Assembly (NCBI GenBank): GCA_040954595.2
Contig: CM082580.2
Coordinates: forward strand, 982,783-1,046,782
Source: Balanoglossus misakiensis
Taxonomy: Eukaryota > Animalia > Hemichordata
Length of the DNA stretch: 64,000 bases
Direction of reading: 5' to 3'
Part shown: positions 3,901-56,949 of the stretch, in pieces
Numbering within the stretch: the stretch's first letter is position 1
Layout of the letters: each line of letters opens with the position of its first letter
The notes under the pieces: model-generated
Told to the model about the DNA's origin: nothing
The model's input: only the letters and a program-made list of their open reading frames with translations
Databases searched by the model: none
Made by a program: the position numbers and the translations under genes

Positions 3901-4054
3901 CCCCCCCGAGAAAAATATGATGGAGGGGCCCTTAAAATTTCACCCCATCATTTTCGGGTAGTTGGGTCCCAATAGAAGCCAAAACAGCAAAAAAATCAAT
4001 TTTAGCACAACAATCCTACGGGAGCTGTTTTTCATGACATACCATACCGCACTA
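919..4054. mobile_element. Non-autonomous Academ (AcademX-type) foldback DNA transposon inserted in the satellite
   Basis: Termini TAGTGTGGTATG / CATACCGCACTA. 3-bp TSD ACT at 916-918 and 4055-4057; removing the element restores the satellite motif TTTCGACTGCAAAA. ~800-bp inverted arms built of ~150-180 bp tandem units. Internal Cys-rich remnant. Confidence 0.8.
2062..2327 (-). pseudogene. C-terminal Cys-rich (CXC/Cys8 zinc finger) fragment of an Academ transposase
   Basis: GW..ENG..YP....LPAPKAVLELIKCGCKAGCRGRCSCSKNDLLCTPLCKC, then a small lesion and an acidic tail. The rest of the gene is deleted. Confidence 0.75.
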
Positions 4055-6727: not shown

Positions 6728-9700
6728 TAGGTATTTGACTCAGAGTAAACAAGATTGTGTAATTGATACATGTCAGAACGAGATAGAGATATCACGCGCT
6801 AAGTTCATGTTTAAGAAATATTAAGATGACGTGTTCCTTTTATGACATAATACTTGACTAACGTATTAATAAGAGGTGGTGAAATTTGATATCACATTAT
6901 TATCACCGGAGATCCGTGACGGGAGTCAACGAGCATGGATAGAGTCGTGTAATTCTTACGTGTGACCAGTAATAAACCACAACTATTTGTGTTACTCGGA
7001 AAACTTGTTGAAAGTCTCGTTATGCCTCTCGTTAAGTTTACGATATGCCGGGTACCTCTCTCTGACTCTATGAATATGTTGGGTGGAGAAGGAGAGGGAG
7101 AGAATTTACACTCTCACCCTTCGGACGTGGCTGATTCCCCAAAGAAGCCCCGATGAGGTAAACGTCCGAAGGATGGCGGGCGTAACAAAACTACAGTGTT
7201 CGCAACATGACCTCAGGTCCGCCGCAGGTTTTGCATGTTACAGCAGAAAACGTCTCCGTCAGACCACTAAAAGTAATACCTTTAGGACATAAATTATTTA
7301 TCTTGAAAGATATTGCTGTATGCAAATTTCATCTCCGGATTGCTATCGGCGAAACATACCGAGGCTGTCGTCGCTATAGTTGGGACCGACAGTCGAGACC
7401 CACATTGTATTGTAAGGAAAGTTTTAGACGCAACTTAATCAAAGCAGGTATAGTTAGCAGAGCAGATTAAGTTAGCAGAGGAGTGTCGGTATCGTCCACC
7501 GTAAACAGGTGTATTCCTATCGGATTTCAAGCGACAGTCAATTCCACTGGTCATCGATGTTTTTCTCCAAGGTGTTTGAAATACGTCTGTTCGATAGAGT
7601 CGTTGTTCCAAAATATGCACGGATGCACGGAATGCGACCACATCTGGTTGTTGACAACAAACTAAGGTAGATTATGACTATAATCCCAACTGTCTCCTGT
7701 GTGACACACTCCTGTTGTGATTATTGCTGGAATAGGCAATGTTTAAAACATGGGTGAAAATCAACAAAATGACAAATTTTCGACTGCAAAATCTCAAAAT
7801 TTCGTCGATTTTTGAAAAAAAAATCATTGGCTGTAGCTCATGAAAATCATCAACAAATGTCAAATTTTCAACTTTGCGAAATCTCAAAATATCGTCGATT
7901 TTTGAAAAAAAAACCATGGGTTCGTCGATTTTTGAAAAAAAACATGGGTGAAAATCATCAAAAAATGACAAATTTTCGACTTTGCAAAATGTCAAAATTT
8001 CGTAGATTTTGAAAAAAATTATGGGTTCGTCGATTTTTGAAAAAAATCATGGGTGAAAATCTTCAAAAAATGACAAATTTTCGACTGCAAAATCTCAAAA
8101 TTTCGTCGATTTTCGAAAAAAAATAATGGGTGAAAATCATCAAAAAAATGACAAATTTTTGATTTTGCAAAATCTCAAAATTTCGTCGATTTTGAAAAAA
8201 AATCACGGGTTCGTCGATTTTTTAAAAAAACATGAGTGAAAACCATCAAAAAATGACAAATTTAAGACTGCAAAATCTTAAAATTTCGTCGACTTTTGAA
8301 AAAAAGCATGGGTTCGTTGATTTTTTAAAAAAACATGGGTGAAAATCATCAAAAATTTACAAATTTTCGACTGCAAAATCTCAAAATTTCGTCGATTTTT
8401 GAAAAAAAAATCATGGGTGAAAATCCTCAAAAAAACGACAAATTTTTGATTTTGCAAAATTTCAAAATTTCGTCGATTTTGAAAAAAAATCATGGGTTCG
8501 TTGATTTTTTAAAAAAACATGGGTGAAAATCATCAAAAAATGAAAAATTTTCGACTTTGCAAAATCTCAAAATTTCGTCGATTTTGAAAAAAATTATGGG
8601 TTCGTCGATTTTTGAAAAAAAATCATGGGTGAAAATCATCAAAAAATGACAAATTTTCGATTTTGCAAAATCTCAAAAGTTCGTCGATTTTGAAAAAAAA
8701 TCATGGGTTCGTCGATTGTTTAAAAAAAACATGGGTGAAAATCAACAAAATGACAAATTTTCGACTGCAAAATCTCAAAATTTCGTCGATTTTTGAAAAA
8801 AAAATCATAGGCTATAGCTCATGAAAATCATCAACAAATGTCAAATTTTCAACTTTGCGAAATCTCAAAATATCGTCGATTTTTGAAAAAAAAAACGGGT
8901 GAAAATCATCAAAAAATGACAAATTTTCGACTTTGCAAAATCTCAAAATTTCGTCGATTTTGAAAAAAAATATGGGTTCGTCGATTTTTGAAAAAAATCA
9001 TGGGTGAAAATCATCAAAAAATGACAAATTTTCGACTGCAAATCTCAAAATTTCGTCGATTTTTGAAAAAAAATCATGGGTGAAAATCATCAAAAAAATG
9101 ACAAATTTTTGATTTTGCAAAATCTCAAAAATCACGGGTTCGTCGATTTTGAAAAAAATCACGGGTTCGTCGATTTTTTAAAAAAACATGGGTGAAAACC
9201 ATCAAAAAATGACAAATTTTCGACTGCAAAATCTCAAAATTTCGTCGATTTTTGAAAAAAAACATGCGTTCGTCGATTTCTGAAAAAAAAAATTTTTGAT
9301 TTTGCAAAATCTCAAAAATCACGGGTTCGTCGATTTTGAAAAAAATCACGGGTTCGTCGATTTTTTAAAAAAACATGGGTGAAAACCATCAAAAAATGAC
9401 AAATTTTCGACTGCAAAATCTCAAAATTTCGTCGATTTTTGAAAAAAAACATGCGTTCGTCGATTTCTGAAAAAAAAAACATGGGTGAAAATCATCAAAA
9501 AATGACAAATTTTTGATTTTGCAAAATCTCAAAATTTCGTCGATTTTGAAAAAAAATCACGGGTTCGTCGATTTTTTAAAAAAACATGGGTGAAAACCAT
9601 CAAAAAATGACAAATTTAAGACTGCAAAATCTCAAAATTTCGTCGACTTTTGAAAAAAAACATGGGTTCGTCGATTTTTGAAAAAAAAACATGGGTGAAA

Positions 9701-11022
9701 ATCATCAAAAAATGAAACATTTTAGACTGCAAAATCTCAAAATTTCGTCGATTTTGAAAAAAATTATGGGTTCGTCGATTTTTAAAAAAAAATCATGGGT
9801 GAAAATCATAAAAAAATGACAAATTTTCGAGTTTGCAAAATCTCAAAATTTCGTAGATTTTTGAAAAAAAATCATGGGTGAAAATCATCAAAAAATGAAA
9901 AATTTTCGACTTTGCATAATCTCAAAATTTCGTCGATTTTGAAAAAAATCATTGGTTCGTCGATTTTTGAAAAAAAAAACATCGGTGAAAATCACCAAAA
10001 AAAAATAGGTATTTGACTCAGAGTAAACAAGATTGTGTAATTGATACATGTCAGAACGAGATAGAGATATCACGCGCTAAGTTCATGTTTAAGAAATATT
10101 AAGATGACGTGTTCCTTTTATGACATAATACTTGACTAACGTATTAATAAGAGGTGGTGAAATTTGATATCACATTATTATCACCGGAGATCCGTGACGG
10201 GAGTCAACGAGCATGGATAGAGTCGTGTAATTCTTACGTGTGACCAGTAATAAACCACAACTATTTGTGTTACTCGGAAAACTTGTTGAAAGTCTCGTTA
10301 TGCCTCTCGTTAAGTTTACGATATGCCGGGTACCTCTCTCTGACTCTATGAATATGTTGGGTGGAGAAGGAGAGGGAGAGAATTTACACTCTCACCCTTC
10401 GGACGTGGCTGATTCCCCAAAGAAGCCCCGATGAGGTAAACGTCCGAAGGATGGCGGGCGTAACAAAACTACAGTGTTCGCAACATGACCTCAGGTCCGC
10501 CGCAGGTTTTGCATGTTACAGCAGAAAACGTCTCCGTCAGACCACTAAAAGTAATACCTTTAGGACATAAATTATTTATCTTGAAAGATATTGCTGTATG
10601 CAAATTTCATCTCCGGATTGCTATCGGCGAAACATACCGAGGCTGTCGTCGCTATAGTTGGGACCGACAGTCGAGACCCACATTGTATTGTAAGGAAAGT
10701 TTTAGACGCAACTTAATCAAAGCAGGTATAGTTAGCAGAGCAGATTAAGTTAGCAGAGGAGTGTCGGTATCGTCCACCGTAAACAGGTGTATTCCTATCG
10801 GATTTCAAGCGACAGTCAATTCCACTGGTCATCGATGTTTTTCTCCAAGGTGTTTGAAATACGTCTGTTCGATAGAGTCGTTGTTCCAAAATATGCACGG
10901 ATGCACGGAATGCGACCACATCTGGTTGTTGACAACAAACTAAGGTAGATTATGACTATAATCCCAACTGTCTCCTGTGTGACACACTCCTGTTGTGATT
11001 ATTGCTGGAATAGGCAATGTTT
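4466..11022 (+). repeat. Near-identical tandem duplication, period ~3277 bp (~2.26 kb satellite + ~1.0 kb non-satellite)
   Basis: Identical ORF translations offset by 3277-3278 (5001/8278, 6962/10240, 7483/10761). Junction near 7740-7748 with TGTTT microhomology. Confidence 0.9.
7745..10005. repeat. A-tract-rich satellite, segment 3 (duplicated copy)
   Basis: Copy of ~4470-6727. Confidence 0.95.
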
Positions 11023-12957
11023 TAATCTGCCTGCAAAGACTCGTGTGACAAAGATTGTCGGCCAGTCAACATCACCAACGATATTAACAATATAAAATAA
11101 ATAAAATTTCAACGATTCAACTTCTTTTCTAGCTTCCTATCTGGATAGTTTGTTTTTTTTACTCTAAAGATCGCCTTTCTTCCAGGCCACGTGGCAAGAG
11201 ACGTTATCAACTTCTACTATGATCGATGCGAGAGTACTATAGTATTCTCATATACACAGACAAAGGCCACCAAAATAAGAGAATCATTTGGTCAAATGGT
11301 AGAGGGCGCAAAAACAGATATTTCAAATGACAAAATTTTCCGATAAACGTGTTTAATCAAATCAAACTGTGCTCAATGGTATGCTTGCAAAAATTGAATA
11401 CAAATGAAACAAAACACAGCAACTGCCATGAACAAGAAGTTTATTCATGTCAAAATTCAATTTTTTTGAATCATTGATTTCAATTATCAGCTGAAAACTA
11501 AAATTAGATTGTCATCTTGAACAGTATAAAATCAGCGAGCCATTAGACATTAAGTACCCAGCATACTAAAATAAAACCATGTAAACATGCACAATTAGAT
11601 AATCAAATAATTTTTATTTATTCACCATGATGTTTTTAATGTATGTCAAGTCAAAGTACTTGAAGTTATGGACGATCAATTAAAATAGAAAACTGTAATT
11701 TTAATGGCTGGGTAATGTATCCAATTTCTGCCCAATATATGAAATTTCCGAGTTAGCAACTGAAGAATTCGTGGGGAAAATAGTTACGTGATGTGTAACA
11801 GAATTCACTTGGAAGTAAGGAGTTTTTGTAAAATCAACATGCATATTACAATTTATTTGTAAAAACTTGATTGGCAATGGAAAATTGGCGTTTAAATATA
11901 TAGTACTTCAAGATGAACAGATAAAATATAAGTTATTACAGATGTCATTTTACGACAACAAGGAATGGTAAATCGTTCTTTAATATCTTTAAAGATGCCA
12001 GGTCAAAGGTCACCTTTGCAAATTCAACCACTGGTACCATAGCCATTTCAAATGTAGCCAAAAGTGCGCCACCACTTTCTTCAAACATACTGAAACCATC
12101 TACAGGTTACCGTAGTCATATATCTCTTGGCATCCATGGCAGTTTAGCTAGTCATGAGCTGGCAAGGGGTGACCTGTAAGCTTTAAACTCTGGCTTCGGT
12201 AATGTCGACTCTGGCTCTGGCATATACTTGCAGGTCCATATGACCTTGGGGTGAACATGGTCATGAAGAAATAAATAGAATCTGTTTGGTGCATTGTCAA
12301 CTTCATTTTATAGTTTCAAAAAATTACAATATGATGAGTAATATTGTTGTTGTTTTCAAAGAGACTCACCACACACTTTAGTAAATCAATGACTTGAAAA
12401 AGTTTTGAGGACTATCATTTGTCAGAATCTCGGACCGCGAGGCACATACTACCTTAAATAGTTTCACTCGCAGCTTCTTGTGGGCAGTTTCTCCTTGCGT
12501 ACCTGTACAGACACACCAGGAGGCCGTTCCCGATGAACAACTCAACCCACATGAAAACATTCAAGCGTCTGGTCACACCCATTTCCGTCAAACAAGAACA
12601 TGAATGAAACTGCGGAGGAAGAGAACGGGAGAGTGCCCATTAACCCTGTAATGACCAATCATTTACTGGAACAAGGTTCAGGATGTACGATCACTGGAGT
12701 TGAAAATAAGGTCATGGATTTGAAAATTATTTTGAGTTATGAAATTGAAAATACATATTTTTCATTGTGGATTCTCCGACATAAATATTATCAAAAACAA
12801 TAAGGGTTGTCTTTTTAATTTATGACATATAACGCCATGAATCTAGCCCATTAATACAAAGGCAATACTAAAACACATTTCGGGTTAGCGTTATGACAAC
12901 TTGAAGAAAGTATGAATACAAACTTTCTAAAGTAATATTTTAAAGGTTGGCGTATTG
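10990..12957 (+). repeat. ~2-kb segmental duplication, copy 1 (copy 2 at 27786-29754)
   Basis: Collinear from CTGTTGTGATTATTGCTGGAATAGG to AAGGTTGGCGTATTG with scattered substitutions. Confidence 0.92.
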
Positions 12958-13070
12958 ATTACAGCTTGTTTGTTCTGCTATTAATGGAAATTCGGTTAGA
13001 GCCGTTTGAGGCAACTCTTATTCTGTCAAAGTTATGGCGTTAACTTATTCTGATAAAGTTATGTTAACGC

Positions 13071-13181
13071 TAATCTGATTAAAATCAGATGTAGGGAACG
13101 GCGACGTGTTTTTTATGCTGTCGCAGCATCAAAAAACTACGTCGCCATTCCCTAGGCCTACATCTGATTTCAAACAGATTG
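13071..13181. mobile_element. ~110-bp hairpin MITE (TAATCTG...CAGATTG), possibly AcademH-type
   Basis: Whole-length imperfect palindrome. Flanks TGTTAACGC / TGTTAACAT look like a degenerate 9-bp TSD. Related copy at 13441-13545. Confidence 0.55.
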
Positions 13182-13216
13182 TGTTAACATCAGGAACACT
13201 TTACATACATAAACTA

Positions 13217-13423
13217 CTGTAAAACACTTTATTTTAGCGAGTTGAAATTTTCACGATATCGAGAGAGGCTACTGTTTCGCGAGTATTAATTTTCGCGTTC
13301 TCTTATTTCATTCACTGCATCGTTATCTTCAAAAATAATTATGCGACCTCTTATTTTCATACCATTTTGGCTCTCACGTATCTCGCGAAAATGTATTGCT
13401 CGCGAAAATAACTTGTTTCACAG
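13217..13423. mobile_element. Tc1/mariner-type MITE
   Basis: TA|CTGTAAAACA...TGTTTCACAG|TA, ~25-bp imperfect TIR, internal TTTTCGCG / CGCGAAAA repeats. Confidence 0.7.
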
Positions 13424-13440
13424 TATATGCAAATATGCAG

Positions 13441-13545
13441 TAATCTGAATAAAATCAGATGTATGGTACGACGACGTCTTTTACTTATGTGGTACAGTAT
13501 TATTAGTATGCTGTCGTCATACCAACTGCGATTTTAGTCAGATTG
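13441..13545. mobile_element. Second hairpin MITE of the TAATCTG...CAGATTG family
   Basis: Starts TAATCTGAATAAAATCAGATGTA like 13071 and is palindromic. TSD unclear. Confidence 0.5.
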
Positions 13546-13856
13546 TATGTACGTCAACACTGATTGTTGTGGCTGCCTTAAATAGGTTTTCACTTTGCGC
13601 TACCTCTATACGTAACGCGTTCACTCAGTAGACCAAAATACACGGATGTCCAGCAGACAAGAGTTCCTGTTTATACCATGAGGCTAGAAGACTGTATTGT
13701 GTTATTATACAGTGGTGCAGTCTAGATTTTAGTGAGGGATTGAAGCGAATCCAATTGCTTGCTTGAAACTCGCCCATCGTGATTGTGCATTGATAAAATA
13801 CAATAATCATACCACAGAAACATAAATTCCAGCTGCGCCTATCAGCGAGATTGTCA

Positions 13857-14784
13857 TAGCCTGGAGACCAGGGCGTCGGGGAAAAGAAACGCCCGGGGAC
13901 AGTCTCTATTTACGAACAGAATTCTGTTCGTAGAACGACACGTGTGGTAAATCTTGCGTGTAAGCTAATTGGTCACTCAATGTTAACCACATGACATCGT
14001 CGCCTTCTAAATAAGGAAATAGAGGTGGAGTCATGTGTGAAATTCCCGCGATGGGATGTGGGAGTGGTTTTGAAAGTGTATGAATATTCATAACCAAGCT
14101 TTGTTAAAGGCACGTAAGGTGTAACTTTTGGGATAATTTTCATAATTTTTGTTTCAAACTGCACTACCATTAGTCCATGCAGATGGAGGTAGTGAACAAT
14201 ACACAAGCATTATAAACCCTAAGTATGAGTGCATATGCAAGTTTTAACCAGATAAATAATAAAGCTTTGCCGCAAGCGATTATGGCCGCCACCGTGGGAA
14301 AATGCAAGAAACAATGAAAATGTTGCATTTCCGGTTGTGAAACTTCATAAACAAAACATGATCTCATCCACTTGAGCTCATGGAAGTAAATGTACACCAC
14401 TGAGACATCAGATTTTCATTTTTCATTGCAATATTGCGCTTTTTTTAAAATTGCAGGAATTTTCGTTTTTCTTTAATTTTTGGCCATTTTGTCATAAATA
14501 AGTGTTGAGCTTGATATATTATCATGAAATAGCATTTAATAGACATAATTAAAAGCATATATGAGATTATTTAAAACTTTAATTTTTTATCCAGTTACAG
14601 CTTACGTGCCTTTAATTATATCATCCAACCACTGGCGCCCGTCAACATTTGATAGATCACTCGTTATCCATTTGTTACTAAGCGACCTCGATCGTTGCCA
14701 AGACTACTATCTTTCAGCTCAGCAGGACTTGCTCGACTGTCCCCGAGCGTTGTATTTTAGATCGACGCCCTGGTCTCCCGGCTA
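13857..14784. mobile_element. Non-autonomous AcademH-type element
   Basis: TIR TAGCCTGGAGACCAGGGCGTCG / CGACGCCCTGGTCTCCCGGCTA (~50 bp imperfect). Perfect 9-bp TSD AGATTGTCA at 13848-13856 and 14785-14793. TAG...CTA termini. Confidence 0.85.
14108..14611. mobile_element. Kolobok-type MITE (504 bp) nested in the AcademH-type element
   Basis: TTAA|AGGCACGTAAGGTGTAACT ... AGTTACAGCTTACGTGCCT|TTAA. TTAA TSD with purine-purine start. Confidence 0.8.
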
Positions 14785-16323: not shown

Positions 16324-16590
16324 AATGAGGCAGTGAACACTGGGGGGACCAGACTGACACGTTAACCAATCAGGGAGCTGTATGGTGAATAAATACATAT
16401 TAATAAGACCTAACCTACAAGGTCCTGCATAATGAGGCAGTGAACACTGGAGGACCAGACCTACACATTAACCAATCAGGGAGCTGTAAAGTGAATAATG
16501 CATTGTAATAAGACCTAACCTACAAGGTCTGGTGAATAATACATAGTAATAAGACCTAACACATAAGGTCCCTCCAATCAGCGAGCCGCA
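16324..16590 (+). repeat. ~107-bp tandem repeat (two units plus partial)
   Basis: AATGAGGCAGTGAACACTGG...AACCAATCAGGGAGCTGTA...TAATAAGACCTAACCTACAAGGTC repeated. Confidence 0.75.
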
Positions 16591-16675
16591 AGTGGACCTT
16601 AGAGAAGTGGATAAACCAATCAGAACATGTAATACGTGTGCATAGGACCTGTAATGTAGGTCATTTTGAAACAGG

Positions 16676-18689
16676 ACTAGTTCACCATGACCAACCACAT
16701 GACCCAGGAAATCGATCTGCTCATAACCCACATAACACTTAGTTGGTCTCGCTGTTAACTTTGCCTTTCGTAGTCTGCTCATCAAATCTGTAATTGTCTT
16801 GATATGTTCTTCCCATGATGCAGTGTGGATCAGTATGTGATCGATATAGTTGTCTACGTTCTTCATATCTCTTAACAATCTTCTCATAATTCTGCTAAAA
16901 GTCGCAGCACTATTTACAAGTCCGAAAGGCATTTTGATAAATTGGTATAGCCCATCATGCGTGATAAATGCCGTCAATTGTTTAGAATTATCAGTCAACG
17001 GGACTTGCCAATATTCTTTGCTGAGATCTACTTTAGTGAAATAGTGATCCTTGGATAACTTAGCAAAAAGCAAAAAGCTCACTCAGGTCTGGTGTAGGCT
17101 CTGCATCAAACACTGTTATGCGATTGAGCTTTCTCATGTCAACACAACAACGATTGGACCCATCAGATTTCTTCACCATTACCAGTGGAACAGCATATGG
17201 ACTCTCTGAAGGTTCAGCTACTCCCATCTTAATCATCGTTTTGACTTCATCTTTCACTGCTTCACGGAGTGCATGAGGGATGGGGTATGGCCTACTGCAT
17301 ACTGGTGTTGGATCCATCAACTTGATGTCATGGAAACCCAGGTTGGTGTTACCACGAATATCAGTTAACATATCTTTGTAATTGATCAGCAACCTCCTCA
17401 CCACTTGCTTCTGTATGTCTGACAAGTTGTCACATACATTCACATCTGCAGCAAATTCTTTCTGCTTGAATGCAGGAACCCGCAGTAAGTCATCGTTTAC
17501 TTTAACCCCTGTGTTCTCTTGTACTTCTGAAGATTCATAACTCTGCTCATCTATCACAGATACACACACAATCTCAAGAAGTCCAGCTGATACTTCATCT
17601 AGCTGATCAGTTCTTCGATAGTACCTCTTCAACAGGTTGGCATGGAATGTTTTCACCCTATGACCAAAGTCAATCTTGTAATCCATATTGCTCGCTTTCT
17701 CCACCACTGGAAAAGGACCCTTCCAGTGCATAAGTAGTTTATTATGGTCAGTAGGTAGTAGCAATAACACCTCGTCACCTTTGTTGAACTTCCTCCATTT
17801 GGCCTTTCTATTGTAGTAGGACTTGTATTTGCCTTGTGATATCTTCAGTTCTTGTCTTGCTAAATCGCATGCCTTCTTTAATTTCTTTTGAAGATCAAGG
17901 ATGTATTGATAAGTCGTTTTGGTTTCTGGTTCACTGATCTCTCCAGTCCATAGTTCTTTCAAGATAGCCATTGGACCACGCACACTCCTCCCATAAAGTA
18001 ACTCAAACGGAGAGAATCCTGTGCTCGATTGAGGCGTTTCTCTGTAGGCAAATAGTAAAGCATTCAGATAACGATCCCAATATGTTGGACGTTCCTCACA
18101 CATCTTCCTGAGCATGAGTTTCAATGTACCATTGAACCGTTCCACTAGACCATTGAATGCTGGGTGGTATGGGGTGGTAGTCATCTGCTTTATAGACAAA
18201 AGCCGGCTGACCTCACGCATCACATCTGATGTAAATTGAGTTCCTTGATCTGTCAGAATTTCACGTGGACACCCCACTCTTGAGTAGATGTCCAGGAGCG
18301 CCTCTGCAACAGTCTTGGTATCAATGTTAGTCAATGCAACAGCCTCCGGATAGCGTGTTGCATAATCAACAACAGTAAGTATGTACCTATTCTTGCGTTC
18401 AGTGCATGGATGAATAGGGCCAACCAGGTCTACTGCAATACGTAGGAAAGGGATATCTATTAGTGGCATACTTCCAAGTGGTACCTTGGTCACCCGTCCC
18501 TTTGGTTGTGTCCGTTGACATGAATCACAGGACTGACAGTAACGGGAAACATCTGATGTTAGCCCAGGCCAAACGAAGTTGCTGAGGATCTTGTCTGTGG
18601 TCTTGTGAGTTCCGTGGTGACCACCCAGCACTGATTCATGGGCTAGTCTCATCACCTGGTTACGATACACTCTGGGAACCACCACCTGT
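16676..18689 (-). pseudogene. pol: Gmr1-like pol, integrase + reverse transcriptase part
   Basis: Zinc-binding AHES..GHHG..CQSCDSC, core DLVGP / TDQG / VERFNGTLK, WKGPF, then RT DLSKEYWQ / MPFGL. YIDD is mutated to YIDH. A 7-bp tandem duplication at ~17063-17078 causes a frameshift. Ends after FLGHVVG. Confidence 0.92.
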
Positions 18690-19538
18690 CACTACAGCTT
18701 GAACGACGCCACCTATGGGCAGTATTTCCGTGGCAGCCTATGAAGCTCATGAATATTTAATTAGACACAGTAATGGCGTTCGCGATCGAACACAGCTGTC
18801 GATGCACAGCATAATTCGGTGAGTAATATTGCTTTATTCCAAGTTTTGTTTAGTAAAATTAGCAAGATGTCAGAGACAATATGAAATAAAGTTGCGATTC
18901 TGCTGTGTTATTTATGTGTATCAGCCAAATAACTTGAACATTTTGATCACCCGCTGACAGTCCCTGGCCGTTGCTATAGCAGAAGCCGTCCTAAGCAACC
19001 ATAAACAAACACTAAAAATTACAACGATTCAGCTTCACAGAATTGTTTTTTTCAATTTGAAAACCATACGAATTTAGTCTTTTATACGTAAACATAGGAT
19101 TCCATGTTTAAAATGCTGCTACAAGCAATATGACGAAATCATACCAAGCGAAAATATACGACCCTGTGTGTTCCTTGGCAGCAGCACGGGTTACATTGAT
19201 TGTAATGGCGGCGCTTCGAATTTTCGGCGACATGGTGATATTGTTCATAGAATTGACAGAAAATAAGACCGTAACTGAAAAATCAGAAACCAATAGTTTG
19301 TGCTAAAATATATTCTTGATATAATTCGCTGGAAATTCGAGGGTGAAAACGAAATAAGAAAAAAATGAATGGGCGAGATTGTTATGGTAAGGTTACCCAC
19401 ATTCTTTCTATGTCACCTTTGACCTCAATTTCTGGAGGAAGTATAATGAGCAGGTGTTTTGTTTTTGCTTCCCTCGGATAGATAATTATTGTAAAGATAT
19501 TTCTCTTGTTCACCCTTTTCAGGTATAGATTTAGAGCC

Positions 19539-22500
19539 ATGTGGGGCAAACTATTCAACAGGAGTAGCGCACTTCTTAAAAGTTTGTCTATTGTTATGCC
19601 GAATAGAAAAGGGAAAAGTTACTTCAACATAGGCCAGTGGGCAAAGGACCAAAAGATAGCGAGACAGGTAGCTGAAGAGAAGTGTTTACAACAACTATAT
19701 CAGGAGAAATTGAAGACTAGATCTTTGTCTGGGAGCGTGGCCAACAACCTATTGGTAGTTAGAACAAAGAGAGGACAGACTAAACACAGGTTTAACTTAG
19801 GAGAGTGGTGTAGACAGAGAAAGAGAAAGAGAGATGAGGAAGAAAGCATAATTCAGGATAAGTTGAATAAGTTGAGTGCAGCTAGGAGACTAGTAAAAAG
19901 ATCCTCAACCCAGCTAGCTAGACTAGAGAAGAAGAACAGTAAGATTTGTGAGATCTTAGCTACAAAGAATAATAAGAGAAAGGTAAGCTAGATCAGATAA
20001 ATAGACTTAGTCATAATTTTAAAAATCTCAGATTTGTATAAATCCTCTTCAAATTTTAGCCCAAATTCGCTTTTTGAACTTCATGTCACATGATCCTGTG
20101 TAAACAATGATAACAAAATGGGTTCAGCTTTGATGCAAAACATCTAGGTTTTCCAACAAACTATGTATATTTTTTAGGATTTTTATTGCAGAAGTTGTCA
20201 GAAAAATACAGGCTACACGTGTGTATTTCTTATCAAGGACATTTAAATTAATGATTAACTTGTAAGAAGATTTTATTTTATATATAATGATTATATTCTA
20301 ATTAGTATATATTTATCACACACTTAATCTTTCAGATTCCTGTTGATGTTGTTAATGTGAAACGCTCTAAATGGGTCCACAAGAACACTGAAGTATGTGC
20401 AGATAATAGTGAATCTTTGAAGCTGTCGCGACGTCAACAGTATGAACGTAGGTGTGAAACCTTATCAGCAGCCATAAATATTCATGTAGCAACTACAGAT
20501 GTAAGCCCAGCCAAAGGTATAAATAAACCGAATGTACTACATCCACCAAAAGCAGCACTTGATGGTTTGTGGTATACTCTTGTTAATTCTGCCACTCCTG
20601 ACCAAATGAAAACATTCTTCAGAACCTCTCCCCAAATCAGTAAAAAAGTAATGCCATCAGTATTTGATAAATACATCAGTAAATTTGAGAAAAGTGAGAA
20701 CAATTTGGTGAGGAGTGTCAGAACTATGTATGAGGGCGGAGTACTATCCAAACGAAAATATAACTGTCTGAGGCAGAGTGAACTTCAGATGTTCTCCAAC
20801 TTGAAACATCCTAGGAAAGCAGTAGAAATTCATTCTGGCTGTAGAATACCAAGACTGCTCCCATACACAAAAGTTGTACAGTATGTAAGTAACCTTGACA
20901 TTGGAAATCTTGAGCCAATTATATCATCTGAAGGCAAACAAGTCGGCTTAAAAAGAAACCCTGAGGAGTTGCTTATTAAGATTGCCAGTTTATATTTAAA
21001 TATGGGGGAAACACAGCCTGATATTCTTAACTGGTTCGGTAAACAGGAGGGCTCATTTCAAATCAGTATAGGTGCTGACGGGGCTCCGTTTGGCAAACAT
21101 GGACAGGCCACTGCATGGCTAGTTAGTTTCTTGAATGTGACCCACCGTGTTGCTAGCCCAGACCACAATTTTCTCCTATTAGGGGCAAACATAAAAGAGG
21201 ATGACCCCATAATGATTGAATTTGCAATTGCATTGTCAAAAGACCTTGAGTGTATTGAGAAACGTAAATATAAAGTTGGCAGTCTTGATGTAACTTTTCA
21301 GGTGTCACTTTTACCCTTTGATCAGAAGGGATTGGCCAGTGTGTCTGGAGAACTAAGCAATGCAGCAAAGTATTTCAGCTCATTTGCTAACGTTCCAAAA
21401 ATGATATTGATTGTATTGGAGCAGAAATTGGCCCAGGTCAGAAGTGGGATGAATGGAAATATCAGAAAAGAATTAAAGATGCAGAAGCTGTTGAAAAGTT
21501 GAAGTCAACTAAGAAAATTAAAACTGGAAAGCCCAAAACAGTGCGACCCAAAATCACACAATTTATAGCCAGTCTGAGGTCAAGACAGGAATTTGTACCA
21601 CCGTTGGGTAGATTTATTGATTGTGCCAAGGCTGAGCCATTGCATTTAAAGAACAATGCATGGCAATACTACTTCCAACGATTACTGATTGACGCAGTTG
21701 CCCACACTTCAGAAAAGGGTCGTGAAAATGGAGTTAAAATTGAGAATCTACCTAACGAGTCATATCTGTACAAATTCCTGTCTGCCCTAAAATATCAAGT
21801 AAAAGCTGGAAAGTTGTATAATAAGATTGTAAAATACTTCAATGAAAATAGTGTCAAGTCAAATGCCAACATTAATGTGGTTTATCGCTTCACTGGTGAG
21901 GAGTCTCGCAAACTTGCTTGGCATTTCATAGGATTGGTATTAGCATTGAGAAGCGATACAGACAGACCAAAGCGTCGGGCTCAATTAGCTCTCTACACAT
22001 ATACTGGTATCTTGCTTAGAGATATCACTTTGTTATTCTCACGATTCAACATAAATGAGGGAGATTTGCTTGTACTTAGGCATAAGTGTCGGTGGTACTT
22101 TAATCTACATTCCCTGTTTCTGAATGTCAATAATACTGTGTGGCACATTGGTTATGTAGTCCCAAAACACACCACTAGTATCTATAAGCAATTCAGTCTG
22201 GGATTAGGCCTAAACACAATGGAAGGCAGAGAGGCAAAGCATCTACGCCTGCTAGAATTCAGTGAAAATTCTACACCTCAAAATAGGTGGGCCCTCATAT
22301 TTCGACACGAATATGTGATGCTTTTTTGGCTGAGGAACAAAAGTCCAAAAGCTGACAACTATAGAAATGCAAATGTAGGTCAATTTGAGCTTAAAGAAAA
22401 AGAAAAATACATTCCCAGTCGATATTATGAGAATGCAGGCTACTGTATGTGTGGCAATTTAAAAAAATGAAACAATGACTGCCTGTGAAATATGTGTTGA

Positions 22501-22576
22501 CCCAATTATGGATGACATAAAAAAAGCAGCTGTCACTGGTAAAATATCAAATAAACTCAAGAAACTTATGCTGTGA
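19539..22576 (+). pseudogene. RAG1/Transib-like DDE transposase, two coding exons (19539-19982, 20336-22576), two 1-bp frameshifts
   Basis: Phase-0 GT-AG intron 19983-20335 joins the ORFs in frame. Motifs LKLSRRQQYERR, LSKRKY, IGADG (D, 21077), IKEDD, PFDQK (D, 21320), EPLH, RFTGEESRKL, GLNTMEGREAKH (E, 22231). Frameshifts near 21394 and in the A-run near 22465. C-terminal CxC...CxxC; stop at 22574-22576. Confidence 0.8.
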
Positions 22577-23428
22577 ACAATGATTGAATTTGAAACAGTG
22601 GATTGTGTCACTGTGTGCTACTTTAGAATTAAAGGATAACTATAGTATTAATTACATTACAGAATTATAAAGACTCATCTGTAGTTGAGAGCTGCATTTA
22701 ATAAAAATGGAGATCACAAATCACATGAATTCACACTTTTTGAACTGGAGATGATATGTTTCTTATGGGATTTTGTATATGTGTGCATGTATGGGGACAG
22801 GGAAATTGAAACTTATCTTACCACTATTAAGTATTGTGAATAAACCCTTAATCGTATAGTGATTGCAGTGCTTTGCAAAATTAAAATGTATGACATACAT
22901 AAGCTTGATAGAAAAGTTTTACATTTTTCTTGAGGAGTTGTTTATTCTGCACCTGCACGAAATTTTAATGAATTTGTGAAAAAATAAAGAATTAAGTCTC
23001 ATCAAATTCTTGATATTTATAAATTTTGTCATGGAATTAATTGTAAATATTAATTAAATTTAGACCAGAAATCCTGGTTAACTGTTAGATGAGCAGTTTT
23101 GATTGACTTATCAATGTTGATTGTAGGTAACATACATTTTTTTCTGAAACTAATGAAAAATCTATGTTACAATAATGATGGAAAAAAAGAATTTTACAGT
23201 TTAGGAAATTTTGTAAACATTATCTGTTCATTTGTATTGAATGTAGATAAATAAAGACAAGTGATGAATTTTTGAGTCTTCTAATTTTCCTTTTTTTATT
23301 TGAATATATGTCAATTGTGAGAGGACTGTCTTGACAGACTGATACATCTACACTGAACAACATGTGCCACAGATCAGGAAAAAAATGTTCCTCAGATGGG
23401 TTGAATCAGTGTGAAAAATCAATAGGGT

Positions 23429-24079
23429 TCAGTTCTCTGGATGTAATGGAATTCCATGTTTGTTCCAGGCACCAAAGCTGAATCTAACAGCAACAGTCTC
23501 CCTGTTGATAAAATATTTCACAACACAGGGCTTCTCAGGTGTGAATATAACAGCTACCCTCTTTCCACGGACTTTCTTCTCTAGGATATTCTCTGTATGC
23601 TGACCGATAGCGCCCTCGTAGCAATAACCTTTCCGTATCACATACAATAGCTTCAAGGAACTTGTGAAGGTCAAGGTTATGATAGCCCTGGAGGTCTTCT
23701 CGTCGATACCAAAACCGGTCCGAGTAGCAAACTGATGAAAAACATCAAATACTTCCCTCGGCATTTGTCGTGTAAAGCTGCTTTGCCATGGTGACCTTAA
23801 CGACGGGGATGTTGACAGCCGAGCGTAGAAGGTCTTCTGCCAGTAGGTCATATCACGCTGAAACATGGGAAATACGGCGACGTCACGCCAACGAATCTTG
23901 TCCTTTGACAGCTTGTCGTTTCGAAATATGGCCCTTGTTGTCACATCCTCAAGTTCATCAAAGAGTGGGTGTATATACAGATTGTCCGACACGCATTTTT
24001 TACGTTTAAGCACAGATTTTGCCTCTCGCAATTTGCGTTTTATAACTTTCTCGGCATCGATCAACACGGGCGCCGCCAT
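23429..24079 (-). CDS. Intact 216-aa protein of unknown function carried by the transposon, convergent with the transposase
   Basis: Single ORF with strong start context CAAGATGGCGGCG, 84 bp inside the right end. Protein-like composition. AT-rich spacer (22577-23428) separates the two convergent genes. Confidence 0.7.
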   Translation of the reverse strand: MAAPVLIDAEKVIKRKLREAKSVLKRKKCVSDNLYIHPLFDELEDVTTRAIFRNDKLSKDKIRWRDVAVFPMFQRDMTYWQKTFYARLSTSPSLRSPWQSSFTRQMPREVFDVFHQFATRTGFGIDEKTSRAIITLTFTSSLKLLYVIRKGYCYEGAIGQHTENILEKKVRGKRVAVIFTPEKPCVVKYFINRETVAVRFSFGAWNKHGIPLHPEN

Positions 24080-24163
24080 CTTGGCAATGCGTTGCTATGG
24101 TGAACATGGGAGCTCGCGCTTCGCGGAATACTGCCCAACATAGCTCTAGTATTTCCCGCAGTG

Positions 24164-25977
24164 TGTAACAGCTTTTCACCAAATTGGACCATTGGCGAAT
24201 TGAACTCTCTGTACAGGATCCCATCTTTCATGATGAACTTCAACCTACCTCCATTCCTAGTCACTTTCTCGTCACCCAAAATTGCCTTCTCACGTAGTTT
24301 GTCAAGAGTGGAGTCTTCTTCTTGAGCTTGTTGAAGCTTCCCTGGCATCACCACTTCACCAACAGCTTTAGGTACTTTAAGCTCTCTGATTGGTTTTTGG
24401 TTGGCTATCTTCTGGGCTCTGGTCTCCACAGCATTTGCTAAACCTGGTACCTGTCCAACAGTTGTACACAGTCTACATGTCGGCAATGGTTCCTGCCATG
24501 TAGTATCAGGATTCGAAGGGTCAGATACACCATCAATGTTGCCCAGTATTAAATCATACACATGGTTCATCATGCACAGTGCAGTAACATCACCAACAAA
24601 GTAAGGGGTATCAACTTTTATAGAGGCTACAGGTACTCTTCTAATAGTCCCATCTATCAGAACACACGTCCTGTACTCACCAGTCAGCTGATTACTTGAC
24701 ACCAGACTTCTTCGAACTACCACGCTACTACACCCACTATCACGCAAAACGCTAACCAGCTTACCATCGAGCAATCCCTTCATTACCGGCATCTTCTTCA
24801 CTCCATGGGCACTACAAGCAGCACTCATCACTGGGAGCTTATGACCACATGGTAACACGAACTCCTTATTCAGTGTTGCATCTGTTTTATCTATTTCCAT
24901 TGCTACCACCATACATGCATAACCAGTGTCTAGTCCCCTGGGCTGTTGACGGTTGCCCCAATGTGTACATTCTTGTTTAGGTGGATAGTTTCTATCTTCT
25001 TCAGTTAACAATACCGCCGTCTTATGCATCTTTGGCTTACTTCTACAATCTTTGGCCATATGACCACCTTTACCACATACGAAGCACGTACCTTTAAAAA
25101 CATGGGAACCATTGGTTTTGTTATTAAACTTATTTACTTGATTTGGATATACAGCAGGCTTGGTATTTGCTGTCGGCTGGCTCCTTGGATTATTCTTGGC
25201 ATTACTTGGCAGTTTCCACCACCCTCGGGCATCTAAGTATTTTGAGGCAGTAGATACCATCTCTTGGACATTCTCTGGCCGTCGCTCTCTAATGAACATT
25301 GCCATGTCTCTGGAACATACTCCAATAAACTGCTCTCGAAGTAACAGATCTGTAAGCCCATTGTACGTCTTTGGAGTACCAGCCAGTTCTACCCATCTGC
25401 CCAAATAGTCACCAATACGGTCCATAAACTTTTGAGCACTTTCATCATAATGTGGCATACACGAACGGAACTTGTCATGAAAACTCTCCTCACTTAACTG
25501 GTAAGCCCTCAATAACTCTGGTTTCAATTCATCATAATTATTTGCAGACGCTGCAGGCATTTGGTTGTATGTGGATACATCCTTACCTTGTAACAATATG
25601 CACTGAGATTCACCCCCAGTCATCTTTTTCCCACTTCTGAGCAGTGGCGTAGCGCTGAAAACGTTGAAGGTACGCATCCATATCATCAACATCCTCACGA
25701 AAACCCTGTAGTCTCGGAGCACGCGCTTTGGCCAAATTATTTTCAGTAACCTGCTGTTCTGTATTTTCCCCTTTCAATTTTAATTCTTGTAAGTGAATTT
25801 GCATTTTCAGTATCTCTCTCTCATGTTCCTCGCGCCGCCTATTATCTTCTCTCTGCTCCTCTCTCTCAGTAGCCCTAAGATCCCTCTGTCTAATTTGTTC
25901 CTCTCTAACATAATCTTTTAAAGCAGTCCCTTCCAACCCAAATTTTCTCCCTATCTTAGATATTCTTTCTGCATATA
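24164..25977 (-). pseudogene. gag: Gmr1-like gag-protease
   Basis: GRKFGLEGTALKDYVRE coiled coil, MDAYLQRFQRYA, SCAN-like EQFI...FIRERRP, CFVCGKGGHMAKDC, LRDSGCS. Frameshifts near 25595-25615; start codon apparently mutated. Confidence 0.88.
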
Positions 25978-35318: not shown

Positions 35319-35472
35319 TGTGATGTCCGGGGAGGGGTTATTGACAGTCGACAACGACGGAGTTCCACAGAAGTGATGTTTATTGAATGACAACCACGCG
35401 GGAACTAACAGTTACAGGAAATCTTGTATACAGACCATGTGACAATCACGTGATCATGACAATACTATCACA
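35319..35472 (-). repeat. 3' LTR (154 bp)
   Basis: TGTGAT...ATCACA. By eye it differs from the 5' LTR only at one dinucleotide (TT vs AC). Confidence 0.95.
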
Positions 35473-35723
35473 TCTCCTCAACTTTAGAAGAAAACTTGTA
35501 CTTTAAGTTTACAACTCGCTTTGGAAAGTATGAAATTTGCCAACACTGTCAAATTGTAATGCTTTGTGAATGATCATGTTCTAACAAACGAAAACAAACA
35601 GAACCTTAACCTTAACAAGAACTTGAGAACTTCATAACTAGGAAAATACAAATCTCCAAGAGAAAATTTGCTCTACAGAAACTCATTCCATAATGTTTGT
35701 GGACAGTCTTATGTCAATATAAT

Positions 35724-38530
35724 CTATCCTTCTGGCATGCAATAGTCTTTGTGCCAAGGAGGTTTAGATTTTATTCTTGTTGAGCGTCTCACATCAGTAC
35801 TATTGGGGTTTACATTTGTCTTAGGTGATATTGTCACTGGCATTGTTGGAGGAACATTTACAATCGTTTCCAACGATGCTGTACCAGTAGGTGAAACAGG
35901 ACTAGGACATGCTGGTCCAGTTGATTTCTGACTAGAACAGACGGGTTATACTGGCAAGTTATCCAGGTTGTTATGTGTAGACAAATCATGGATATGGGGG
36001 TTACAGGATGGAACACCATTTTGAACCCTTTGAGGTTGTTCATATGTCAAATGTTTGGAGTTCCATTCAGTGCCCTGGAAGGAAAATTCTGGATATTCCT
36101 CAACATATTTCTTTACATGTCCAGTGGACCTTCTTTTTACACCTTTGGAGTTTTCCAATACTAACGCACCTCCATCTTTCTGGATGACTTTGTATGGTTC
36201 TGTCTCGAAATTGGGAGTGAGTTTGTTTTGCCTAAATGCTTGCTGGAGCAAAACAGTATCACCTTCCCTGATATCTGAGGAAGTGGCATGTCTCCTGTTG
36301 TCGGCATAGAACTTTTGTTTCATTTTCATTCTGTTGTTTCTTTCTCTCATTTTGATTTGCCAATCAGACTCATTGATTGTTTGGGATGGAATTCTCAGTC
36401 TAGGAATTTTGTCCCTAAACTCTCTTCCCATCAGAGCCATAGCAGGAGATATGCCTGTCACAGTATGGGGTGTATTTCTATATTCAAATAGAAAATGTGT
36501 CAAATCTTTGTACCAACTTTTCTTTTGCAATTTAGCAATTCGTACAGACTTCAAAATTATTTCATTCAGCCTCTCAACACTTCCATTGCTCTGAGGCCAG
36601 TATGGAATGGAATATTCATGATCAATACCTAAGTAATCAAGGAAACCTTCAAACTCGGCTGAGGTAAAAGGTGGACCATTGTCTGATTTGACACAGTAAG
36701 GCAACCCATGTGTAAGAAACATAGCTTCCATGGCTTTTATGACATGGGCAGCATCTGTTTTCTTTAACAAAACTACTTCAGGCCATCTAGAGTATAAATC
36801 AGTTACCACTAGTAATTTCTCACCATCACATACATCCAAAAGATCAACTGCTAAATCGAACCATGGTCCTTCAGGTAACTGTGTGGGTAATAATGGCTCT
36901 GGGTTTGGCCTGGCACTGACCAATTGACATGGATGACAGGATCGTATCAGTTTTTCTACATCCCTGTCCATTCCTGGCCACCAAACTCTGTCACGTAAAC
37001 GAGCCTTTGTCCTCACAATTCCCTGATGACCCTGGTGTGCAATTTTCAAGATTTTTCTTTGCAAAACTTGAGGAACAACCAATCTGTTACCACGCATGAT
37101 CAATCTGCCATACAACCATAATTCGTCTTTCACATGCCAATAGGGTGAAGACTTCAATTTTGACCAATTTGCAGAGGTAATACACTTTTCAACCAATTGC
37201 AAGCTCTGGTCTTTTGCAGATTCTCTCTCAATATCACGTGGGGTGATAGCAGATGGCATAGCCTCTAAAACAACACTACATGCAAAATCTTCAGTCTCTC
37301 TACAATAGTTGTCAGATGGTTCGTCCACGGGCAATCTACTCAACATGTCCGCATAATTATTCTTTCCCTTGATATGGGTGATATGATAATCAAATTGTTG
37401 CATATATAACAGCCATCTCTCAATTCTAGCTGAAGGGGGCCTGGAGTTAGGGCTGAATACTTTCAATAAAGGCTTATGGTCAGTTCTGACCTCAAAATGA
37501 CTGCCTAGCAGAAACTGCTGAAGTTTCTCACATGCCCATTTAACTCCAAGCGCCTCTCGCTCAAACTGAGAGTACCTCGACTCAACATGTGTAAGCTTTC
37601 TGCTAACATAGTACACTGGTTGATATGAACCATTACTTTGCATTTGTTCAAGGATTGCTCCAACACCAACGGGCGATGCATCAGAAGTGACTCGAGTTTT
37701 AGCACCCTGCTTGAAATAAGCCATGAATGGACTTGTGGTCAATTTATGTTTGATGAGATTGAATACTTTCTCATGCTTGGGAAGCCATTTCCACTTTGCA
37801 TCTTTGCGAGTCAAATCCCACAGTGGGCTTGTCACTGTTGCAAATTTATCGACATATTTTGAGCAAAATTGAGCCAGCCCAAAGAAACTTCTCAATTCTG
37901 ATTTGTCAGTTGGCGTTCGAGCTTTTACAATAGCTTTGACCTTCTCATCAGTGAGTTTCATACCCTGGGCCGTCATCAAGTGACCCATGAATATCATACT
38001 GTCTCCTAGCTTACATTTTGTAAAGTTCAGCGTTAAACCATGCTCACTAAAACGCTTGATCACTTTCCCAACTCTGGCATGCAGCTGCTCATAATTTTCA
38101 GCTACTACTCTAATATCATCATGCATGTTGTGGGCACCCTCACAGCCCTTCAAAACCTGGCTAATTAGATTTTGAAACTTTTCAGTCGCCATGTTCACAC
38201 CAAAAACTAAACGCTTGTAGCGATACAAAGAGTTGGGCCCTGAAAAGGTTGTAATATCCCTGCTCTTTTCATCGAGCTCAATTTGATGGAAAGCCATATT
38301 CATATCAAGCTTGCAAAATACCTTGGCCCCTGAAATTTCCTCTAGCGTTTCATCCATGGTGGGAACAGGGTGTCTTTCCCTAACAATGGCTTGATTTGCT
38401 TTTCTCATGTCCAGACATAGTCTGATATCCCCATCAGGCTTTTGTACTGTTACAAGGGGGTTGACCCAAGAGGTCGGACCCGAAACCTTCTCTATTACTC
38501 CCAGCTTTTGAAGCTCGTTGAGTTTTTTCA
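35724..38530 (-). pseudogene. pol: pol RT-RNase H-integrase, downstream copy
   Basis: RLCLDMR, LDMNMAFHQ, MHDD, DASPVG, TDHKPL, AHQGHQG..CHPC, SDNGPPF, GSVER. In-frame TAA at 35946-35948 precedes the C-terminal RRSTRIKSKPPWHKDY tail. Confidence 0.92.
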
Positions 38531-40059
38531 ACAACTTTAGCACGGCGGTTGAAAGGAATTCGCCGGTACTGGGCTATGGGTTTGACACTCTCATCAATAT
38601 GCAAATGGAGCTTGTAGCCCTTTAACTTACCCAACCCATTAAATACCTCAGAATATTTCCTCCGCAATTCTGCAAGAATTGGCGAAGAATTATCAGCAGA
38701 TATTGAATTTATCGTGTACAGATTCACATTTCCAACTCTCAACATATCTAAATTCTCAGAAGTACTCCGACTCAACAAAATCGGTTGATCAGCCTTGATC
38801 ACTATAAAATCAGCAATACATTTCTTTTTAGTAGGCGCTTCAACATGTAAGGCACATTTACCCAATATATCTAAAGGTTTACTAGAACCATAGGTAAACA
38901 CTTTATTGTTACAATTTCGAACTTTCACACCACGCTTTTCAGCAAGTCTGCGAAATTGTCTTTCACCAATGAGATTACATGTAGCACCACTGTCGATGAT
39001 AACCGGCACGTGTTGATTCTCGATCTGAATACCTGTATCAGTGAGGTCCTTCCCACTGGAAGCACGGAAAGCAGCATTGAAAGCATAGTACACTTTCTCC
39101 TCGTCAGTCTCGACGTCTGCATGGCCACCATCGGCGTTTGCATCAGTAGTCGTCTGAGCTACCTTGTGTGTACCGCGACCATCACCACGCGTACGGCCAC
39201 GTCCACGTGCGCTGCGGTTACCACCACTGCCTCGACTGTTGCCATTTTCACTGTCTTTAGACGGACAGTCTTCCCACTTAGCACGACAGTCTGCAGCTCT
39301 GTGTCCCGGTTTTTGACATCGGAAACACCGGTCGGACTTTTGTTCGGCATTGCGAGAACTACCACTTGTACTGGCGCGACATTCACGTTGCATGTGACCT
39401 TTCCTTCCACAACGGAAACAGGCTAAGTCCGCCATTTTGTTTTTGGCGCGCGTACGTTTACCGCCAATATTGACTGCATTTGCACTCACAGCTTGAGTAC
39501 CAGACACCAAAACTAGTGCATCTTTGTCGTGATACGACCGTATGATTTGTAGTAGTTTGGTAGTGTCCAAATTCTTTTCACGATACAGCTTGCTTTTTAG
39601 CACCTTGTCGCTGATGTAGAGCAAGACACGATCTCTTATCTGGTTGTCTTTTTCCGTCTCGGGAAAATCACAGTCTTTCAGTAGGTTCTTGAGACGTATT
39701 ACGTAGCTGTCGACCGTCTCCCCGGACGTGGGAGTTGCGCTGTAAAACTTCTGTCTCGCCATAGGAACGTTTTTCTGCAGTTGAAAGTGTTTATCCAAAC
39801 ATGCTATCAACGTTGCGCAGTTTGTGACGTCACCAGTTTCATCTTCAGATTTAGTGCTAACAATGTCTCTGATGCCCGCTCCAGCCATGTGCAAAAGTAA
39901 GGCACGCTTCTGCGCATTATTTGAAACACCAGAAGCTGCTACGAACAGTTCAAATTCCTGAAGCCAACGCTCCCACCTTTGCTGAAGAGCCTCCGGTTCG
40001 CCTTCACAGTCGAATCCCGCCACTCCTGGCAGTCCGGACAGCGTTACGGGTGTAGACAT
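38434..40059 (-). CDS. gag: gag-protease, downstream copy (two CCHC knuckles)
   Basis: W..W...FELF, CFRCGRKGHMQREC, CFRCQKPGHRAADC, IIDSGA. Separated from pol by one extra A near 38525. Confidence 0.9.
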   Translation of the reverse strand: MSTPVTLSGLPGVAGFDCEGEPEALQQRWERWLQEFELFVAASGVSNNAQKRALLLHMAGAGIRDIVSTKSEDETGDVTNCATLIACLDKHFQLQKNVPMARQKFYSATPTSGETVDSYVIRLKNLLKDCDFPETEKDNQIRDRVLLYISDKVLKSKLYREKNLDTTKLLQIIRSYHDKDALVLVSGTQAVSANAVNIGGKRTRAKNKMADLACFRCGRKGHMQRECRASTSGSSRNAEQKSDRCFRCQKPGHRAADCRAKWEDCPSKDSENGNSRGSGGNRSARGRGRTRGDGRGTHKVAQTTTDANADGGHADVETDEEKVYYAFNAAFRASSGKDLTDTGIQIENQHVPVIIDSGATCNLIGERQFRRLAEKRGVKVRNCNNKVFTYGSSKPLDILGKCALHVEAPTKKKCIADFIVIKADQPILLSRSTSENLDMLRVGNVNLYTINSISADNSSPILAELRRKYSEVFNGLGKLKGYKLHLHIDESVKPIAQYRRIPFNRRAKVVEKTQRASKAGSNREGFGSDLLGQPPCNSTKA

Positions 40060-40314
40060 TTCATCTCCTCAACTGTAGAAGAAAACTTGTACTTTAAGTT
40101 TACAACTCGCTTTGGAAAGTATGAAATTTGCCAACACTGTCAAATTGTAATGCTTTGTGAATGATCATGTTCTAACAAACGAAAACAAACAGAACCTTAA
40201 CCTTAACAAGAACTTGAGAACTTCATAACTAGGAAAATACAAATCTCCAAGAGAAAATTTGCTCTACAGAAACTCATTCCATAATGTTTGTGGACAGTCT
40301 TATGTCAATATAAT

Positions 40315-44656: not shown

Positions 44657-44739
44657 GCACTCAAATCACGGCTAAAAAGTCACCAAATCTCGTAAAGGTT
44701 GCTTGCGTATGTTCTTCGATAGTTAATTTAGACAACTAA

Positions 44740-56819: not shown

Positions 56820-56949
56820 TATTAATATAATATTTATAACTTATGTAGCACATTAAATCTCAACATGCTTTAAAGTTGTCCCATGGTAATTTGACCTAGG
56901 TCGTTGGACCTTACTATTCCATTCAACTCCCTGGGGAGCAAACAACATC

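Follow-up and report, generated by a model that had tools for sequence, protein, structure and literature searches.

The locus and its two genes

The window, i.e. the complete 64,000-nucleotide stretch of DNA analysed here, carries a two-gene DNA transposon of 5,474 bp (18690..24163, + strand) which is inserted into an LTR retroelement of Gypsy type running along the - strand, a Pfam scan of the element's flanks revealing an integrase-like domain on one side and a gag-like domain on the other. The element starts with CACT and ends with AGTG, giving it CAC..GTG ends, and is bordered by two copies of the 3-bp target site duplication (TSD) TGT (18687..18689 and 24164..24166). Alignment of the ends identified a bipartite, imperfect terminal repeat, whereby the left end (18690..18726, + strand) consists of CACT and, further in, of TGGGCAGTATT, which takes up positions 27-37 as counted from the terminus (18716-18726), and the right end (24127..24163, - strand) of CACTGCGGG, again followed by TGGGCAGTATT at positions 27-37 (24137-24127).

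Next to the right end lies an intact, single-exon gene of 216 aa (23429..24079, - strand), referred to here as the partner gene, whose uninterrupted ORF had been described in an earlier sequence-only reading of this DNA and was found exactly as described, with its ATG placed 84 nt inside the right end (24163) and pointing toward the transposase on the + strand. When the stretch 22576-24163 was shuffled 1000 times (first-order), no ORF reached 216 aa (maximum 205). An AATAAA hexamer at 23295..23300 (- strand), about 130 nt past the stop and one of four such hexamers on this strand, may serve as poly(A) signal of the partner gene. The two genes are convergent, i.e. arranged tail to tail. The main transposase exon (20336..22576, + strand) was located by tblastn with a Ptychodera flava protein and opens with a phase-0 acceptor; its catalytic codons are D at 21077-9, D at 21320-2 and E at 22231-3, and two frameshifts, one near 21395 and one near 22463, interrupt the reading frame. 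A first coding exon is predicted at 19539..19982 (+ strand), starting with an ATG at 19539 or 19596 and ending at a GT donor (19983), and with removal of the corresponding phase-0 intron (19983-20335) the protein would gain a basic N-terminus. An F-x-I/V-G/N motif of this putative exon was also identified upstream in six of eight sister loci checked, and within the window's first exon the motif F-N-x-G-x-W occurs twice (YFNIGQW and RFNLGEW, 19596-19820). The left end mirrors the right one, a short ORF starting there with ATGGCG at a distance of about 84 nt from the terminus (18771-18826), and a GT donor-like site near 18819 may mark a non-coding first exon of the transposase transcript.

Contigs from two sequencing runs of one sample, which is possibly the window's source and does not lend independent support, span the element at an identity of at least 95%. 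Within this material one contig of run X2 possesses an extra base at the first frameshift (window 21392) and one contig differs by eight letters immediately beyond the right end (window 24165), which weakly hints at another allele or copy, or at read error, all within the same sample. The host Gypsy-type element (16468-18686 and 24167-25773) has its integrase immediately after the gag/protease region, a reverse-transcriptase piece downstream of the integrase and a SCAN-like gag domain. Elsewhere in the window a second LTR retroelement with a PNMA-like gag and an 875-codon pol frame is present as two tandem copies, 4,591 bp apart (35471-44665), and complex satellite-like arrays occupy 1-9976 and 56800-64000 with units of about 105/183 bp and 192 bp, a long inverted-repeat structure being located at 922-4023.

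The transposase

The protein search with the window's transposase returned 179 proteins, of which 120 were listed; identity to the Ptychodera flava protein amounts to 75% over the 340 aa searched and to 34-43% for the other 119 matches listed, the named ones among these being cnidarian. Alignment of 116 transposase sequences identified D210, D293 and E591 as invariant, i.e. as a DDE triad. Columns 288-322 of this alignment, which follow the second D, contain no Cys pair of the kind expected for a C(2)C motif. Instead F311-x-x-F314 stands 18 and 21 residues after D293, which by RAG1 spacing we take to be the position equivalent to C(2)C. As to an H(3-4)H motif preceding the E, constancy is confined to the second His, H570 occurring in 99% and H565 in 59% of the 116 sequences, and the window's own transposase possesses a Tyr at the first His position. 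The motifs DGAPFG, PFDQK, EPLH, RFTG and EGREAKH are assumed to resemble those of RAG1 and Transib, their order appearing RAG1-like. A profile of 30 transposases gave no match at E<=10 among PDB sequences, those of RAG1 and Transib included, and single chance matches only were obtained with 30 transposases against Pfam. Given this assumed likeness in motif order and the nature of the ends, the transposase is likely a distant relative of RAG1 and Transib. A survey of viral contigs revealed relatives neither of the transposase nor of the partner subfamily.

The partner protein family and its predicted fold

The partner protein had been considered an orphan by the sequence-only reading, a view overturned by a full HMMER search, which identified 81 homologous proteins at E<=0.001, 12 of them at 1e-10. 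Most are 200-250 aa long and 20-39% identical, and a word-indexed search started from the single partner protein passed none of 84 candidates. Of the 81 homologues 73 entered the alignment, seven short fragments and one fusion being left out. Residues W80, R87, P97-W98 and P107-x-E-x-F111 are family motifs, as is a C-terminal Y/F-G-x-W-N-x-x-G-x-P-x-H, the homologues sharing the ending Y-G-x-W-N-x-x-G-x-P-Q-H, and a conserved basic patch covers positions 61-98 (median net charge +6); pI exceeds 8.5 in 51 of 61 full-length members. The protein of the window gave no Pfam match at E<=1, and searches of the family against Pfam, NCBIfam and PDB sequences yielded single-member chance matches only. 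PF26709.1, a domain newer than the Pfam release searched, was found precomputed on all five profile hits of the partner (5/5), and the family is already catalogued as Pfam domain PF26709, for which a literature search found no paper. The clusters to which partner homologues belong are often multi-copy, with some truncated members and up to 232 members per cluster, and the few named proteins are hypothetical proteins of Actinostola, Pocillopora and Tubulanus. In Tubulanus polymorphus three annotated isoforms (P0186, P0254 and P0255) possess the partner domain at the C-terminus of a tau/MAP-repeat protein, a fusion which is either an exonised transposon gene or a gene-model artefact.

Structure prediction for the partner with AlphaFold2, using 74 sequences, resulted in a model with a pLDDT of 92 and a pTM of 0.83, the fold obtained from the single sequence (pLDDT 37) having been discarded. 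Within its 216 aa the model predicts four N-terminal helices followed by seven strands and two helices, arranged as a helical hairpin (3-53), a helix carrying the conserved Trp and Arg-Arg (69-87) and a subsequent alpha/beta domain. The beta-like C-terminus proposed from the sequence is thereby borne out by a model that is beta-rich in this part. The basic N-terminal helix proposed along with it holds for the window's protein, in which KRKLREAKSVLKRKK falls into predicted helix 3-27, but does not extend to the family, as the median net charge of residues 1-30 is -2 across 53 homologues. A Foldseek search of the model against PDB and viral structures returned no match at E<=0.001, and a wide VIA structure search was taken up by matches to the helical hairpin, the best of which reached Z 7.6 across 59 residues. 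For the alpha/beta part similarities to AcrID1 (Z 5.2, rmsd 4.6, 79 aligned residues) and to the repeated domain of RnlA (Z 4.6, rmsd 4.2, 73 aligned residues) were obtained, all of these values lying within the range of common arrangements. The missing structural match is not proof of a new fold.

That the partner is neither a kelch nor a PHD protein, and as such not RAG2-like, had been concluded from the sequence and agrees with the searches described above. A kelch propeller is ruled out by the predicted model of helical hairpin plus alpha/beta domain, kelch families moreover being matched by none of the 74 members. A PHD finger is likewise ruled out, the window's protein possessing three Cys and none of the 89 aligned sequences sharing a conserved Cys column. 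Descent of the partner from its own transposase was rejected with a profile-profile probability of 0.3%.

Linkage of partner and transposase

When metagenomes were scanned with the alignment of transposases, 213 stretches were confirmed, and the best 80 loci were used; these were chosen by the transposase alone, so that stand-alone partners lie outside this selection. With the partner profile a convergent downstream homologue was identified in 35 of the best 80 loci, a count to be read against the length of downstream DNA available, as the partner is present in 35 of 43 loci with at least 1 kb, in 31 of 33 with at least 1.5 kb and in 13 of 14 with 3 kb. After clustering at 85% nucleotide identity it is found in 13 of 15 locus families with at least 1.5 kb downstream, and it is missing in L022 (1.8 kb downstream) and in L040 (6.1 kb downstream, partial transposase). 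Viewed from the partner, eight of the 81 homologues are at least 50% identical to a linked partner, three of these at least 80%. Intact transposase-partner pairs include those of L003, L010, L014, L046, L056, L072 and L076, the two genes of L072 being located at 3770-5872 (+ strand) and 6603-7217 (- strand). The gene was proposed to occupy the position that RAG2L holds in ProtoRAG, and this placement is supported by the element-borne, convergent homologues of the 31 loci just mentioned. Co-occurrence with the transposase, suggested as a check together with a homologue search, was observed, and the idea that the homologues are unlinked host genes failed on their linkage to sister transposases.

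A further pair was found in L081, a locus from another collection, where the element is complete (6241-14782), its terminal repeats match perfectly over 15 bp, its TSD is ATA and it is inserted into a 294-bp satellite. This is the sole match from a prokaryotic collection; its contig is filed in an Anaerolineae bin, and the satellite is devoid of long ORFs. Most likely the contig is mis-binned host animal DNA and does not document gene transfer, and contigs of this kind could lead to the transposases being credited with bacterial relatives. In some elements incomplete copies of the partner gene, on the + strand, occur immediately inside the left end (L081:6826-7167, L072:1168-1263, L073:3228-3323 and L074:804-899), as if the right arm had been duplicated onto the left.

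Element ends and target sites

Among representative elements the right end mostly reads CACGCYGGG, and in 13 of 15 it is separated from the ATG of the partner by 71-107 nt (84 nt in the window's copy), 12 of these 13 sharing the start context ATGGCG. The short, conserved distance fits a promoter located in or over the terminal repeat, which might permit the autoregulation proposed by the sequence-only reading, and the window's right end (24127..24163) likely overlaps the putative core promoter of the partner gene. Ten elements with both ends were considered for the TSD, nine of which were testable: an exact 3-bp TSD is present in five of them (GAT, TTA, TAG, ATA and TGT), none of which extends to 4 or 5 bp, and for L081 the satellite unit represents the empty site, confirming ATA. 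A matching TSD is absent in the other four (L002, L013, L015 and L072), which may result from collapsed short-read assemblies.

Selection and co-descent

Selection was assessed with 23 partner ORFs forming 14 pairs of more than 50% identity. Eight pairs from three families gave dN/dS values of 0.22-0.33 and one near-identical pair 0.07, while four further pairs were synonymously saturated (pS 0.77-0.85, pN 0.26-0.30). One pair yielded 1.39 on six changes, its transposase giving 1.0, as expected for decaying copies. The substitution pattern indicates that the partner gene is under purifying selection. The comparison of dN/dS across copies had been proposed as a check, and the refuting possibility of an ORF not conserved in sister elements is not borne out by these values.

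Pairwise distances of partner and transposase correlate (Mantel rho 0.53, p 2e-4, 13 elements), although deep pairs stand beside shallow ones in this test and the overlap between some segments of the transposase is limited to 62 columns. Partners show a median identity of 21% and transposases one of 37%, and position and orientation of the partner are constant across elements whose partners are 14-54% identical. In a tree of 86 partner sequences, matches shorter than 140 aa being left out, transposase-linked members occur in three of the four clades with a support of at least 0.9, the fourth clade holding 13 members, with P0122-P0126 as closest matches, and no member with known context. A conserved, selected and co-descending second gene is located inside the ends of these mobile elements.

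Comparison with known transposons

ProtoRAG and the RAGL elements resemble the present family in that CAC..GTG ends enclose a convergent pair of genes, that the end motifs are bipartite (as in the window's copy), that the DDE transposase possesses a C-terminal Cys cluster and that they occur in cnidarians and a hemichordate (PMC7204232, PMC9435367). They differ in producing a TSD of 5 bp instead of 3 bp, in their partner, which here is an alpha/beta protein of about 210 aa encoded by a single exon and lacks kelch propeller and PHD, and in their transposase, which here is without C(2)C and did not match any solved RAG1 or Transib chain by HMM. Membership in ProtoRAG/RAGL is ruled out by the 3-bp TSD, the missing C(2)C and the absence of a kelch-PHD partner.

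The CMCT clade is characterised by Kojima 2025 (PMC12730594) by CA..TG ends, TSDs of 2-5 bp and the motifs C(2)C and H(3-4)H; the present element shares the CA..TG ends, a TSD within this range and the DDE triad, but its transposase lacks C(2)C. The same study gives 5'-CAC..GTG-3' ends and a 3-bp TSD as consistent with EnSpm (PMC12730594), and the present family also shares with En/Spm (CACTA) a second protein beside the transposase. Unlike in En/Spm, however, 30 transposases remained without Pfam match beyond single chance ones, C(2)C is lacking, and the partner gene is convergent, its product being no TnpA with tandem HTH domains. As judged from ends and DDE layout, Chapaev3 and Transib belong to the same clade; both are described as single-gene elements. 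Chapaev3 makes 3-bp TSDs and Transib one of 5 bp. The Chapa zinc finger N-terminus (PMC4411706) was not seen in the aligned proteins. This two-gene family was not encountered in a search of the literature outside subscription journals; it may nevertheless bear a name deposited in Repbase or Dfam.

Possible function of the partner

These data are best read as those of a helper subunit inherited together with its transposase, the two genes constituting a lineage within the CMCT clade of transposons that is apparently undescribed. More precisely, it is suggested, with moderate confidence, that in this family of two-gene cut-and-paste transposons of marine invertebrates the partner joins the element's own DDE transposase in the transposition complex and assists it there. 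Its role would be like that of RAG2, albeit with an unrelated predicted fold; RAG2 helps RAG1 in binding and cleavage (PMC7204232). This suggestion follows from the lineage-locked inheritance of the two genes, from the RAG2 precedent and from the missing TnpA-type domain. Anti-silencing TET/JBP genes shift between superfamilies, as reported by Kojima 2025 (PMC12730594), and since the partner does not behave in this way but is locked to its lineage, a specific partner interaction fits better than a swappable cargo. The helper subunit would function as follows. Both genes would be transcribed inward from promoters in or beside their own terminal repeats, and the partner would bind the transposase, or end or target DNA, via the conserved Arg-Arg/Trp patch and the C-terminal YGxWNxxGxPQH motif. 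The complex formed may then excise the element and reinsert it with a 3-nt stagger. As its partner gene is intact and its transposase twice frameshifted, the window's copy would need a sister copy to move.

A more far-reaching version of the helper-subunit reading, put forward tentatively and with less confidence than the reading itself, assumes a distinct, undescribed branch of transposases related to RAG1 and Transib, in which the zinc site was lost and a partner of new fold, obligatory for the transposase, was acquired independently in the convergent position also held by RAG2.

A different and less likely role, although one matching several of the observations, is that of a sequence-specific regulator or anti-silencing factor which, like TnpA of En/Spm, does not join the transposase. 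It would bind the terminal motifs and either switch the two inward-facing promoters on and off or keep them unmethylated. The partner protein is basic, and its co-inheritance and basic surface equally suit a DNA-binding regulator; a start codon no more than about 110 nt from the end makes an overlap of promoter and terminal motifs likely, the ATGGCG about 84 nt inside the window's left end would provide the mirrored counterpart, and TnpA constitutes a precedent in the same clade. TnpA-like proteins are, however, transposase-derived tandem helix-turn-helix proteins of flowering plants only according to the report documenting this precedent (bioRxiv 10.64898/2026.08.24.746577), whereas the partner is modelled as a helical hairpin with a beta-rich domain and reaches the above-mentioned 0.3% in profile comparison with its own transposase.

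Origin of the partner from the Argonaute N-terminal (N-L1) module, which would make it an RNA-binding suppressor of piRNA/RNAi defence, is considered improbable. The idea stems from an Atlas feature search with the window's protein, whose top matches were ArgoN/ArgoL1/PAZ clusters (score 0.93), and from the predicted beta-alpha-beta-beta-alpha start of the domain. Yet the Atlas recognition of 1361 and the 140 shared features are both under the tool's thresholds, a second family member gave no usable match in the same search, ArgoN and PAZ are absent among the families matched by the 74 members, and the fold rows listed hold no eukaryotic Argonaute, prokaryotic Ago rows reaching a TM of 0.16. 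That the partner represents a host gene captured by the element, or a passenger that is neutral and has no role for it, for which the nemertean protein P0186 with its partner domain fused behind tau/MAP repeats and the known context of merely a minority of the 81 homologues could be cited, is highly improbable and largely refuted by linkage and selection, i.e. by the same place and orientation across elements with partners 14-54% identical and a dN/dS of about 0.3, in addition to clusters that comprise many copies, some of them truncated, and reach 232 members, and to named members that are merely hypothetical proteins.

How RAG1 became dependent on RAG2 has yet to be answered for the origin of adaptive immunity, and a probably related lineage with a different conserved partner in the same place provides a second case for comparison. 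If the recruitment of a new-fold partner by a zinc-site-less branch holds true, this would be a second, parallel two-subunit transposase and as such a natural experiment that could reveal for what reason RAG-type enzymes gain a cofactor, and in which way. Intact paired copies exist in coral-associated and other marine DNA, rendering the partner's role directly testable, and a protein family without clear fold match gains a genomic context.
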